Program-made: the position numbers and the translations under genes | Notes under the pieces: generated by a model | The model's database searches: none | What the model was told of the DNA's origin: nothing | What the model saw: the letters and a program-made list of their open reading frames with translations, nothing else | Assembly (NCBI GenBank): GCA_050486105.1 | Contig: JBJHCR010000002.1 | Coordinates: 1-62,268 of the forward strand | Direction: 5' to 3' | Length of the DNA stretch: 62,268 nucleotides | DNA from: Vulcanimicrobiota bacterium | GTDB taxonomy: Bacteria > Vulcanimicrobiota > Xenobia > Xenobiales > JADMJV01 | Shown: in pieces, positions 52,860 through 55,625 of the stretch | How positions within the stretch are numbered: the first letter of the stretch is position 1 | How the letters are laid out: every line of letters begins with the position of its first letter

Positions 52860-53102
52860 ATGAGTGACACAGGAGATAAGACCGAGTTGGCAAACTTTAT
52901 TGCGAGCCAACTTTCAGCCATGCTCGGCCAAGAGGTTTCCCCTGAGGCCAATTTTGCAGCTCTCGGGATGGACTCTTTGGACGCCGTCACCCTCATTGAT
53001 GCCCTGGCCGACCGTCTGGGAGAAGACGAACTTCCGGTAACCTTAGTGGTCGATTTTCCCACCGCCCAGGCCCTAGCGACTCACCTGACGGAGTGCCCGT
53101 AA
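52860..53102 (+). CDS. stand-alone acyl/peptidyl carrier protein
   Basis: 80 aa, with the phosphopantetheine attachment motif LGMDSLDAVTLIDAL. It lies immediately upstream of the MBOAT gene. Confidence 0.8.
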   Translation: MSDTGDKTELANFIASQLSAMLGQEVSPEANFAALGMDSLDAVTLIDALADRLGEDELPVTLVVDFPTAQALATHLTECP

Positions 53103-53146
53103 CCAGGAGAGGATCGCTTTGAATAGAGGTCAAACACCCTGAACTG

Positions 53147-54598
53147 GTGCTTTTCAACTCTGCGACCTTTCCTTTCTTTTTGGCCTTGGTCCTGTTGCTG
53201 TATTACGGCACAGGCAGGAGTCTTCGAGCCCAGAACCTGACCTTGCTTCTTCTCAGTTACCTCTTCTACAGCTACTGGGATGTCCGGTTCCTGTCTTTGA
53301 TCCTCTTCTCCACAGCCGTGGATTACTGGGTGGGACTAAAACTCACGGAAACGGAGGATCCAAACTTACGCAAGCCTCTGCTTTGGCTTAGCCTGTCCAC
53401 CAATCTCGGCCTTCTGGGGATTTTTAAGTACTTTGACTTTTTTTTGGACTCCCTCAAAGACCTCGCCCTAGCTCTGGGCTGGACCTACACCTTTCCGCAC
53501 TTGGACCTCATCTTGCCGGTGGGAATCAGCTTCTACACCTTTCAGTCCATGAGCTACACCATCGATGTCTATCGTCGCAAGGTTCAGGCTACTCACGATC
53601 TGGTAGCTTTCGCCTGCTATGTGGCTTTCTTCCCTCAGTTAGTGGCCGGCCCCATAGAGCGAGCCACCCACTTCCTTCCTCAGGTCTTAGCCCCACGAAA
53701 GACCACCTGGCAACAGGTGTCTTCTGGAACTTATTTGATCGTATGGGGCCTGTTCCTGAAAGTGTTCGTAGGAGACAACCTGGCGCCCATTTCCGACCAG
53801 GTTTTTGCCGACCCCACCGTGTGTACGCCGACCGAGGTCGCACTGGGGAACTTGGCCTTTATGTTCCAAGTTTACGCCGACTTCGCCGGATACTCAAAAA
53901 TCGCCCGAGGGGTGGCTCGGCTCATGGGATTCGAGCTCAGTCTGAACTTCAACCTGCCTTATCTTTCGCTGACTCCTATGGACTTTTGGCGGCGCTGGCA
54001 CATCACGCTCTCCCATTGGCTGCGCGACTATCTGTTCATCCCGTTGGGAGGAAGCCGGGGTTCAAAACTGAGGGTGTCGAGAAACATTTTGATCACCATG
54101 GCCTTGGCCGGACTCTGGCACGGGGCCGATTGGACCTTTGTGCTATGGGGTGTCTGCCATGGCTTCCTTCTCATCTTCTACCGATACTTTCCGGGGCTTG
54201 GGCGCAAACCGATGGGAACGGACTCGATGAATCCGGTCATCCGAGGCTCGGCCACGTCCTTCTGGACCTTTGTCTGTTTCGCTCTCGTTTACCTCACCAT
54301 GGCGGTATTTAGGGTCGAGCAAGTCTCGGAGTTGCCTGAGGTCCTGGGGAAGTTGCTCCAGGCGCCAAATCACCTCTTGGGTGGGGGATGGCAAGACCAT
54401 CGACTTCTTCTGGTCAAGGTTGCCTTCTACACCTTACCGGTGGCAGTGGCCGACCTGGCATGCGCTCTGTGTCCGGTAACGCGATGGAGAATGACAGCTC
54501 CCTGGCCTCTGCGAATCGTCTGGTATCTCACTTTGTTCTATGCCATCGTACTGTTTGGAGGGTCTTATGGACAGCAGTTCTTCTACTTCCAATTCTGA
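53147..54598 (+). CDS. MBOAT-family membrane-bound O-acyltransferase (AlgI/DltB-like)
   Basis: 483 aa, polytopic. The hallmark region reads [26 protein letters not shown] and includes the conserved catalytic His. The N-terminus (M)[10 protein letters not shown] is typical of AlgI/DltB. Confidence 0.9.
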   Translation: [483 protein letters not shown]

Positions 54599-55625
54599 TG
54601 TTCCCTTCTGGAGTAAAGAAGGCTTCCCTTGGGCCGGAACTGCTGCGGTCTTGATTATTCTTGCCATAGAATGGGTCTTTTATCACCCCCTCTGGAGCGT
54701 TCGGGCCGGACGTCATCACGCCGACCGAATAGTGGCTGCGAAGGTCCACTATGTCCAGGAAACGCCGCCGGCCGATATGCTGCTGCTGGGTGACAGTTCG
54801 GTCAGCACTGCCCTAGACGCCGCCTATCTGAGCCGACGTTACCCGGGGGTGAATTTTGTCAATCTCGGATTGGTAGGATCTACCTCCATGGCTGGAACCT
54901 ACTTCATGGCGGCTCGCTATCTCGAGAACCACCCCCCACCTAAGGCTGCCTTTATCATGTTCAGCCCACTTACCCTAAACTATGATGTCGGCGAATTGAT
55001 CTGGAACCGTCGCCTAATGCGCTTCTTTCACCGACCTGCCGAAATCTTCGCGTACGCCCCCTTCTGTGGGCTCGATGCAGCCTGCCGAGCCATGCTTCAC
55101 AATCTGCTGCCAAGCAGTGAATGGAGCGATTTCTTCTGGAATTTTCCGAGGGAAGACCTCAAGACCTGGACCGATATCCAGACCTCGTGGACGGAAAATG
55201 GAGAGTTCTACCCACAGTTAGTGGCAACCCGAGGATTCACTCCTGTGACCGAAAACGAGCCCTTTCATCAGCGAGATTTCCGCTTGAGCGTGAGTCCGAT
55301 TAACCAACACTTTCTAGACCAGCTCATCAGGGAACTTCAAGGCCTGGAAGTGGAGGTCTACTTCGCCTTTCCCCCCTTGCCCGAAAGCCGGTACCAGTTG
55401 CTCCAAGCTGACCAACAGGCACTTCGGAGTTGGTCGGACTACCTCGATTCCCTTAAGACTCAAGGAGTGCTAGCATGGCCCATGCCTGCCTGGTTTCCCG
55501 ACAAGGATTTCGGCAGCCTCTACCACTTGAAGGAGAGTGCCACCCCAGCCTTCAATCAGCAGCACGCCGCCGGGATTCAAGACATCGTCGAAGGTTGGAT
55601 GGCCCCGGCTTCCGTTGAGGAATGA
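54567..55625 (+). CDS. membrane-anchored extracytoplasmic protein, tentatively DltD/AlgJ-type SGNH-like acyltransferase partner
   Basis: It has one N-terminal TM helix (WAGTAAVLIILAIEWVF) and a block-I-like motif, MLLLGDSSVSTALD. It sits directly downstream of, and overlapping, the MBOAT gene, as dltD and algJ do. The other SGNH blocks were not confidently identified. The start could be 54540 or 54567. Confidence 0.45.
   Translation: MDSSSSTSNSDVPFWSKEGFPWAGTAAVLIILAIEWVFYHPLWSVRAGRHHADRIVAAKVHYVQETPPADMLLLGDSSVSTALDAAYLSRRYPGVNFVNLGLVGSTSMAGTYFMAARYLENHPPPKAAFIMFSPLTLNYDVGELIWNRRLMRFFHRPAEIFAYAPFCGLDAACRAMLHNLLPSSEWSDFFWNFPREDLKTWTDIQTSWTENGEFYPQLVATRGFTPVTENEPFHQRDFRLSVSPINQHFLDQLIRELQGLEVEVYFAFPPLPESRYQLLQADQQALRSWSDYLDSLKTQGVLAWPMPAWFPDKDFGSLYHLKESATPAFNQQHAAGIQDIVEGWMAPASVEE

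Follow-up and report, generated by a model that had tools for sequence, protein, structure and literature searches.

Several bacterial acyltransferase systems combine a membrane acyltransferase of the MBOAT family with a co-encoded extracytoplasmic protein of the SGNH type. Described examples are PatA/PatB of Neisseria and Campylobacter, AlgI/AlgJ/AlgX, WssH and PatA1/PatB1 of Bacillus, and every MBOAT-SGNH pair that has been characterised adds acyl groups to polymers of the envelope (PMC12148441, PMC9487903). Anderson et al. (PMC12148441) showed that the C-terminal hexapeptide of these systems is a tyrosine acyl shuttle, which in PatA, AlgI, WssH and PatA1 forms part of the MBOAT itself, borne on two additional transmembrane helices; PatA uses acetyl-CoA as its donor. 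DltB, in contrast, is without those helices, and in the Dlt system the motif is supplied in trans by the microprotein DltX and the acyl group by the carrier protein DltC (PMC12148441), which docks on the cytoplasmic HC helix of DltB at Met302, Val305, Ile306, Met309 and Lys312 (PMC11035591). The Dlt system is one of Firmicutes, but some Gram-negatives, namely Dickeya and Pectobacterium, have Dlt operons as well (PMC5541007). Here we analyse a locus with features of both types in a 62,268-nucleotide stretch of DNA from a Vulcanimicrobiota bacterium (assembly GCA_050486105.1, contig JBJHCR010000002.1, positions 1 to 62,268; hereafter the window). It comprises a gene for an MBOAT, an overlapping downstream gene for a predicted membrane-anchored SGNH protein (hereafter the partner) and, directly upstream of the MBOAT gene, a small gene for a stand-alone carrier protein.

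The first-pass annotation of the window, made from the sequence alone, had placed an 80-residue carrier, a 44-nucleotide gap, an AlgI/DltB-type MBOAT and an overlapping third gene exactly where we find the corresponding open reading frames (ORFs). It had read this order as a counterpart of dltC-dltB-dltD, in which the carrier feeds the MBOAT, rather than as a system of the AlgI/PatA type. The placement of the genes was borne out, but the functional reading is not supported, in view of a fused FxYxxF motif, a score below the cut-off of the DltB model and the carrier-less state of the relatives. We consider it likely that two independently conserved modules adjoin here, namely an O-acyltransferase pair of the PatA/PatB type and the carrier of a neighbouring cluster that also codes for a fatty acyl-AMP ligase (FAAL), a ligase of the ANL type and an enzyme of the GH3 family. 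Each module, as recognised by gene identity, fold and motif, is conserved separately from the other.

The MBOAT carries its own acyl-shuttle motif

The window MBOAT matches the Pfam family PF03062 (E 1.8e-25), and its His285, which lies within a WHI motif, is invariant in 15/15 aligned MBOAT sequences. The protein ends in GQQFFYFQF, of which residues 478-483 (FFYFQF) fit the FxYxxF pattern at the extreme C-terminus, and the same pattern occupies the extreme C-terminus of all 95 of the 95 MBOATs that we sampled from the family. An AlphaFold2 (AF2) model (pLDDT 87, pTM 0.87) has extra helices at residues 419-441 and 453-470, followed by a flexible tail of low confidence that bears FFYFQF; together they make up a C-terminal extension of approximately 70 residues with the architecture of PatA and AlgI. 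Because it has a fused FxYxxF on extra C-terminal helices, the window MBOAT has the architecture of PatA and AlgI, not that of DltB. The invariant catalytic histidine is a further likeness to the former, whereas the Dlt system, in which those helices are absent from DltB, depends on DltX for what the window enzyme carries itself.

Against the DltB equivalog model TIGR04091 the window MBOAT scores 151.6 bits, the cut-off being 375. DltB is nevertheless its best solved-structure match by sequence as well as by fold: at approximately 20% identity to the DltB structures, its model retrieves DltB (6bug, E 4e-13) as the top Foldseek match, and HHAT and PORCN are matched as well. This rank is not diagnostic, because the remaining significant fold matches are all eukaryotic MBOATs, and no structure of the PatA or AlgI type is found among the significant matches. 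A comparison of the HC helix across the 95 MBOATs likewise revealed no residues that discriminate between donors, as the one member linked to an acyl carrier protein (ACP), which is found at an Aquimarina locus discussed below, resembles the carrier-less ones.

The family to which the enzyme belongs is very large, with more than 8000 matches of approximately 470 residues that are typically 47% identical, and is spread over Planctomycetota, Myxococcota, Gemmatimonadota, Omnitrophota, Bacteroidota and other phyla. Among species-representative genomes the nearest ones, which come from many phyla, show 40-55% identity in the MBOAT.

The partner is a predicted membrane-anchored protein of the DltD/DUF1574-like SGNH type

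The ORF of the partner opens at 54540, the conserved start being the ATG at 54567, from which the gene overlaps that of the MBOAT by 32 nucleotides. Recurrence of the same overlap in five relatives (L002, L004, L005, L087 and L088) suggests translational coupling of the two. The protein has a predicted N-terminal helix (residues 22-38), which we take as a membrane anchor on the strength of this prediction, followed by the motif LLLGDSS at residues 72-78. Its Ser77, in the GDS motif, and His320 do not vary within the clade of the window protein, and in a set of 30 relatives their conservation is 90% or higher.

The partner on its own has no Pfam match above threshold, the best being DUF1574 (PF07611) at 12.1 bits (E 0.12) against a gathering threshold of 29.1 bits. 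Relatives linked to it by jackhmmer reach individual DUF1574 scores of 31.4 and 30.2 bits, and 9 of 30 members of the partner superfamily match DUF1574 at E 0.01 or better (best E 3.6e-10); the superfamily members related to DUF1574 are all encoded directly downstream of an MBOAT. Some members also match the Lipase_GDSL_2 and DltD models, Pfam DltD being matched by 1 of the 30 and not by the window partner itself. Judged by these profiles, DUF1574 appears to be a better family fit than Pfam DltD. A 2022 review lists DUF1574 as a family of the SGNH clan whose function is not known (PMC9487903).

Among solved structures, the closest to a profile of the 30-sequence family is DltD of E. faecalis (6o93, E 3.1e-5), with an alignment that runs from the motif of the nucleophilic serine to the C-terminal D..HL motif. 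DltD structures (6o93, 7dxm and 3bma; E 2.6e-4, TM approximately 0.4) are also the top Foldseek matches of an AF2 model of the partner (pLDDT 70.7, pTM 0.71), ahead of generic SGNH hydrolases. These results sustain the earlier proposal of an anchored SGNH/DltD-like protein. They also bring a resemblance to the Dlt system, in which an MBOAT is likewise followed by an N-terminally anchored SGNH protein; here both proteins have their nearest solved structures in that system. The partner differs in turn from those of the PatA/PatB-type systems: neither it nor its relatives match the Pfam families of PatB (DUF459), AlgX/AlgJ or DHHW, and the weak similarities that we did recover are to AlgX by profile (E 0.17) and to PatB by fold (E 0.04-0.06, probability 0.2).

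Close homologues of the partner number four among 5.8 billion clusters, and a profile of five sequences retrieves 431 clusters at E 0.001 or better and 5 at E 1e-30 or better from 1.84 billion representatives. The partner superfamily is wide and the clade of the window protein within it is rare. In this clade and in some Verrucomicrobiota relatives the DxxH of SGNH block V is replaced by F-[GA]-S-x-x-H-L (residues 312-320, window positions 55500-55526). The window clade has F-G-S-x-x-H, in contrast to the canonical block of the PatA/PatB-type systems, and an invariant PD eight residues upstream of it, while the wider family keeps [YF]DxxHLN. As the window clade replaces DxxH, its catalytic acid may differ.

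The pair is conserved as a module without a carrier

To describe the genomic context of the pair we used the seven nearest MBOAT relatives with a readable upstream side (L002, L004, L005, L087, L088, L089 and L091); an eighth (L001) keeps the pair, but its contig is cut inside the MBOAT gene so that the upstream side is unreadable. The pair is kept in 7/7 of these relatives at 51-61% identity of the MBOAT, in neighbourhoods that differ, and a carrier adjoins the MBOAT in none of the seven. An unfiltered ACP hidden Markov model (HMM), which detects the window carrier at E 1.5e-31, finds no ACP on nine relatives' loci (the eight just named and L092, a second copy of L091). At the level of translated sequence, the relatives' contigs resemble the window from 53146 to near 55590, i.e. 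over the pair alone, and in a neighbour-joining tree the window MBOAT is nested within a carrier-less clade.

A gene for uracil phosphoribosyltransferase (upp) lies beside the pair in four relatives (L002, L004, L088 and L089), and a glycosyltransferase together with a sulfotransferase in another; the position beside upp is probably the original one. In L004, L088 and L089 the pair also adjoins four consecutive conserved genes, none with a Pfam match (approximately 170, 150, 285 and 772 residues); L002 shows only the start of this run before its contig ends.

The wider family behaves in the same way. We fetched 80 genomic loci with related MBOATs from diderm phyla (Bacteroidota, Planctomycetota, Verrucomicrobiota, Omnitrophota and others). 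Nearly every MBOAT in them is followed by an ORF of 290-380 residues, and iterative jackhmmer searches from the window partner recover 76 of 89 of the proteins encoded downstream of the MBOATs. An ACP adjoins the MBOAT in 1/95 of the sampled family members, again that of the Aquimarina locus (L033). Genes for a carrier, a ligase or a DltX-like microprotein are not part of the conserved module, which in this agrees with the PatA/PatB-type systems. Since a DltD-like partner is the norm for carrier-less pairs, its presence in the window is no argument for dependence on a carrier.

The carrier probably belongs to a separate cluster with FAAL, ANL ligase and GH3 genes

The carrier matches the Pfam family PP-binding (E 4.9e-12, 46.4 bits) and has the motif LGMDSLDAV, whose Ser39 is the attachment serine. 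Its top NCBIfam matches are the C-terminal ACP of polyketide synthases (PKS) and the T domain of carboxylic-acid reductases (CAR), with non-ribosomal peptide synthetase (NRPS) and AcpP models matched too, whereas no DltC model is matched at E 0.01 or better; by these profiles the carrier is classed with the PKS/NRPS type. Leu40 and Val43, which come after this serine, are generic to ACPs and carry no information here.

Detectable homologues of the carrier are two, P0127 (61% identity) and P0128 (55% identity), and the context of neither includes an MBOAT; P0128 adjoins an MbtH gene. P0127 lies on a 13.7-kb JGI contig (3300056388), which reads, in order, sulfotransferase, alpha/beta hydrolase, carrier (+), a 225-residue protein (-), an Amidohydro_2 enzyme of 270 residues (-), a protein with AMP-binding and AMP-binding_C domains of 505 residues (+), an AMP-binding protein of 528 residues (-), a GH3 protein of 547 residues (+), an SDR enzyme and an O-methyltransferase. 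The block in the window is alike in order, strands, sizes and families, except that the MBOAT pair is inserted behind the carrier. In this comparison the 225-residue gene, which is without Pfam match and lies beside the Amidohydro_2 gene, takes the position of the 243-residue gene of the window, and the 528-residue AMP-binding protein that of the FAAL. The 243-residue protein itself has no Pfam or NCBIfam match, and a metagenome scan with it recovered one weak, unrelated locus (L093, with amidase, QueG and histidine kinase genes). As each module is kept without the other, the adjacency of carrier and MBOAT is not a conserved feature. The first-pass annotation had itself named this adjacency in other genomes as a test of its reading, and the outcome (0/7 among the nearest relatives, 1/95 in the sample) goes against it.

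Domain matches confirm the FAAL, ANL ligase and GH3 genes that had been noticed near the operon. The ANL ligase has a FadD4-like protein as its best NCBIfam match (280 bits), and the best single-enzyme NCBIfam matches of the FAAL are FAAL models (E 1e-105 to 1e-107). FAALs need a carrier as acceptor, and for this reason the FAAL is the most likely loader: by analogy with described pairs of a FAAL and a stand-alone ACP, which the block of carrier, FAAL, ANL ligase and GH3 genes resembles, the carrier would most likely be charged by it. Bacterial GH3 enzymes make N-acyl amino acids, e.g. lyso-ornithine lipid (PMC12493201). The block from the carrier to the GH3 gene (52860-53102 and 55577-62268) constitutes an orphan cluster whose product is possibly an acyl-amino-acid lipid.

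This context raises a further alternative, that the MBOAT pair uses acyl-CoA to tailor or place what the neighbouring cluster produces, with the carrier not serving as donor. It might for example O-acylate a secreted or outer-leaflet acyl-amino-acid lipid, in place of the alpha/beta-hydrolase O-acyltransferase of the related contig. In its favour, an alpha/beta-hydrolase gene lies directly upstream of the carrier in the P0127 contig, the window yielded no hydrolase of this kind (ORFs of 39.5-62.3 kb scanned to E 5, other large ORFs to E 0.001), and planctomycetes make ornithine lipid with a GH3 enzyme and an O-acyltransferase of the alpha/beta-hydrolase type (PMC12493201). The window GH3 does match the model of the lyso-ornithine-lipid synthetase OlsH, but weakly and far below its cut-off (62 bits against 620). 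Moreover, pairs at approximately 60% identity exist without such a cluster, four of them beside upp and others beside glycosyltransferase or sulfotransferase genes, and the polymer substrates of all characterised MBOAT-SGNH pairs also point elsewhere. We regard a tailoring role as very unlikely.

A carrier-linked cassette in Bacteroidota and the case for a carrier-fed pair

The single ACP-linked MBOAT of our sample belongs to a full cassette in a polysaccharide locus of the bacteroidete Aquimarina algicola (L033; NZ_VFWZ01000001, 1246-6508; Table 1). Its ligase is DltA-like (TIGR01734 280 bits, AA-adenyl-dom 313 bits), its MBOAT carries a fused FIYFQF, and its partner is DltD/DUF1574-like and of the same superfamily as that of the window. 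From its sequence we take L033 to be a true case of an MBOAT-SGNH system with a linked carrier in a diderm, with Dlt-like loading and a PatA-like fused shuttle. In the window, too, an ACP gene directly precedes the MBOAT gene, and the MBOAT family and the partner superfamily are those of L033. The window differs in that a DltA-like ligase precedes the ACP in L033 and none does so in the window, that no similarity was detected between the two carriers, and that the MBOATs are 35% identical (272 bits); the window MBOAT scores higher against a carrier-less paralogue at the same L033 locus (364 bits).

At a further locus, that of Flavobacterium proteolyticum (L051), three pairs of MBOAT and partner lie in tandem (5198-7594, 7686-9997 and 10001-12324), followed by genes for a polysaccharide deacetylase, an FkbH-like protein, a methyltransferase and an ACP (L051, 5198-16126).

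L033 provides a precedent for the alternative closest to the first-pass reading. Under it, the FAAL, the ANL ligase or another nearby enzyme would charge the carrier, which would dock on the cytoplasmic face of the MBOAT, and the acyl group would pass by way of Tyr480 and the partner to a polymer, the arrangement being a lineage-specific recruitment. Several observations weigh against our preferred interpretation and in favour of this one. The carrier and MBOAT genes are co-oriented, 44 nucleotides apart and without a predicted terminator between them, and their co-transcription is plausible for these reasons. The pair is located exactly between the carrier and the rest of the carrier's cluster, and the closest solved fold of the partner is that of DltD. 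As L033 combines both, a fused shuttle alone does not exclude a carrier-bound donor. The synteny with P0127 comes from one informative contig, on which five downstream genes were equated with those of the window by Pfam family, size, order and strand, and the near relatives of the pair are short metagenomic contigs, so that a carrier gene farther off is possible in them.

These points are outweighed, in our view, by those on the other side. The adjacency is missing in 7/7 of the nearest relatives and in 94/95 of the sampled family members, both carrier homologues have MBOAT-free contexts, and the carrier resembles neither DltC nor the ACP of L033. The greater similarity of the window MBOAT to the carrier-less paralogue than to the ACP-linked MBOAT of L033 points the same way. 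There is also no dedicated DltA-like ligase: Pfam and NCBIfam scans agree with the first-pass annotation that the operon has no DltA-like gene, and the nearest adenylating genes, those of the FadD-like ANL ligase and the FAAL, lie 1.5-5 kb off, past two genes on the opposite strand, and are not DltA-like. A Dlt-like, carrier-fed system in the window is accordingly unlikely. A bolder form of this idea, in which the pair, having been inserted behind the carrier, takes a long-chain or aromatic acyl group from it and thereby lipidates or arylates a polymer of the diderm envelope, is decidedly unlikely; if true, it would represent a carrier-fed donor class other than amino acids for bacterial MBOAT-SGNH systems.

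Layout and integrity of the locus

The features of the window locus and of the L033 cassette are collected in Table 1.

Table 1. Features of the Vulcanimicrobiota locus (window) and of the Aquimarina algicola cassette (L033)
Sequence	Feature	Coordinates	Strand	Details
Window	Carrier	52860..53102	+	80 aa; PP-binding; Ser39 at nt 52974-52976
Window	Intergenic gap, carrier to MBOAT	53103-53146		exactly 44 nt
Window	MBOAT	53147..54598	+	483 aa; His285 at nt 53999-54001; F478-F-Y480-F-Q-F483 at nt 54578-54595
Window	DltD/DUF1574-like SGNH partner	54567..55625	+	352 aa; Ser77 at nt 54795-54797; His320 at nt 55524-55526
Window	Protein without family	55577..56308	-	243 aa; convergent with the partner gene, overlaps its 3' end
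Window	Amidohydro_2 enzyme	56274..57104	-	276 aa; PF04909, E 7.6e-35
Window	ANL (acyl-CoA synthetase-like) ligase	57151..58698	+	515 aa; AMP-binding and AMP-binding_C
Window	FAAL	58643..60433	-	596 aa; AMP-binding, E 2.1e-60, and DIP2-like C-terminal domain
Window	GH3-family acyl-acid amido synthetase	60670..62268	+	533 aa, runs past the window end; GH3, E 5.5e-39, GH3_M, GH3_C
L033	DltA-like ligase	1246-2730		
L033	ACP	2743-2988		
L033	MBOAT	2999-4444		
L033	Partner	4450-5373		
L033	EpsG-type gene			follows the partner

The window comes from a metagenome-type contig, and its GC content rises from 0.54-0.56 in the carrier, MBOAT and partner genes to 0.585-0.649 in the genes from 55.6 kb onward, which might be taken to mean that the assembly has joined two unrelated regions. 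We give next to no credence to such a chimera. An independent assembly (L006, Logan SRR31311414) matches positions 52133-57990 at 100% identity over 5858 nucleotides, and because it spans both junctions of the MBOAT pair, these are not an assembly artefact. GC content at third codon positions (GC3) is 0.61 in the carrier, 0.68 in the MBOAT and 0.62 in the partner, and the value of the MBOAT resembles those of the downstream genes (0.66-0.74); by GC3 there is no clear compositional break marking an insertion of the pair. No direct or inverted repeats were found to bracket the pair. A scan for promoters and terminators gave counts not above those of shuffled sequence, with no site between carrier and MBOAT.

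Proposed functions of the two modules

With the adjoining of two modules as the preferred interpretation, the window pair most likely adds an uncharacterised member to the envelope acyltransferases of the MBOAT-SGNH class, the chemistry of which has become clear in recent work on Dlt and PatA/PatB. By analogy with PatA/PatB (PMC12148441), its MBOAT would bind acyl-CoA, probably acetyl-CoA, at a cytoplasmic tunnel, and, with His285 as the catalytic residue, the acyl group would pass to Tyr480 of FFYFQF on the external side of the membrane. The flexible tail of the MBOAT may then hand the group to Ser77 of the anchored partner, which would esterify a hydroxyl of an extracytoplasmic glycan, be it peptidoglycan, an exopolysaccharide or a polymer of the lipopolysaccharide type. 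The carrier, loaded by the FAAL or the ANL ligase, would for its part serve the synthesis of a lipid or small molecule of the acyl-amino-acid type.

Other genes of the window

Upstream of the carrier, the region 45407-49867 codes for a 1086-residue A-T-R enzyme resembling carboxylic-acid reductases (NF041592, 635 bits against a cut-off of 1300), which is convergent with and overlaps a Rieske/LigXa-like oxygenase gene. It is followed at 49998-52790 by three ORFs without family match: one at 49998-51197 with a stretch, SDTDLIVVLP, that resembles a nucleotidyltransferase motif, one at 51284-51709 with a prepilin-type N-terminus (GHNLLEMILAVVIFS), and one at 51636-52790 with a lipoprotein-like signal, LLLFGLVGC. 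The 801-residue protein at 42078-44483, earlier called an SLH porin, matches SLH weakly at its N-terminus (E 0.0037), and its long C-terminal region matches no family. A BamA/Omp85 gene on the contig of a relative (L091) supports a diderm envelope in the lineage.

Farther upstream lies a set of genes for urate breakdown (28806-32294), which code for an amidohydrolase, an OHCU decarboxylase and a membrane urate oxidase (Urate_ox_N). The region 18293-27684 has on its forward strand genes for a protein that combines GGDEF and Hpt domains with a response-regulator receiver domain (two matched stretches), for a HEAT-repeat protein and for a GT2 glycosyltransferase, and on its reverse strand genes for two large TPR proteins of 572 and 942 residues; it could be a unit for glycan synthesis and export regulated by cyclic di-GMP. 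At 3355-8675 a GT4 glycosyltransferase gene is followed by two tandem, overlapping paralogues of glutamine-dependent asparagine synthase, an order that is frequent in exopolysaccharide loci.

Implications

Judged by adjacency alone, the locus would have been mistaken for a Dlt-like system of a diderm, and the case illustrates that synteny needs checking in relatives before function is assigned from it. As regards the families concerned, cassettes of the L033 type offer a better place to seek carrier-fed glycan acylation outside the Firmicutes. Proteins of the DUF1574 type gain a testable role, as the standard companions of MBOATs with a fused shuttle in Bacteroidota, the PVC phyla, Omnitrophota and other groups.

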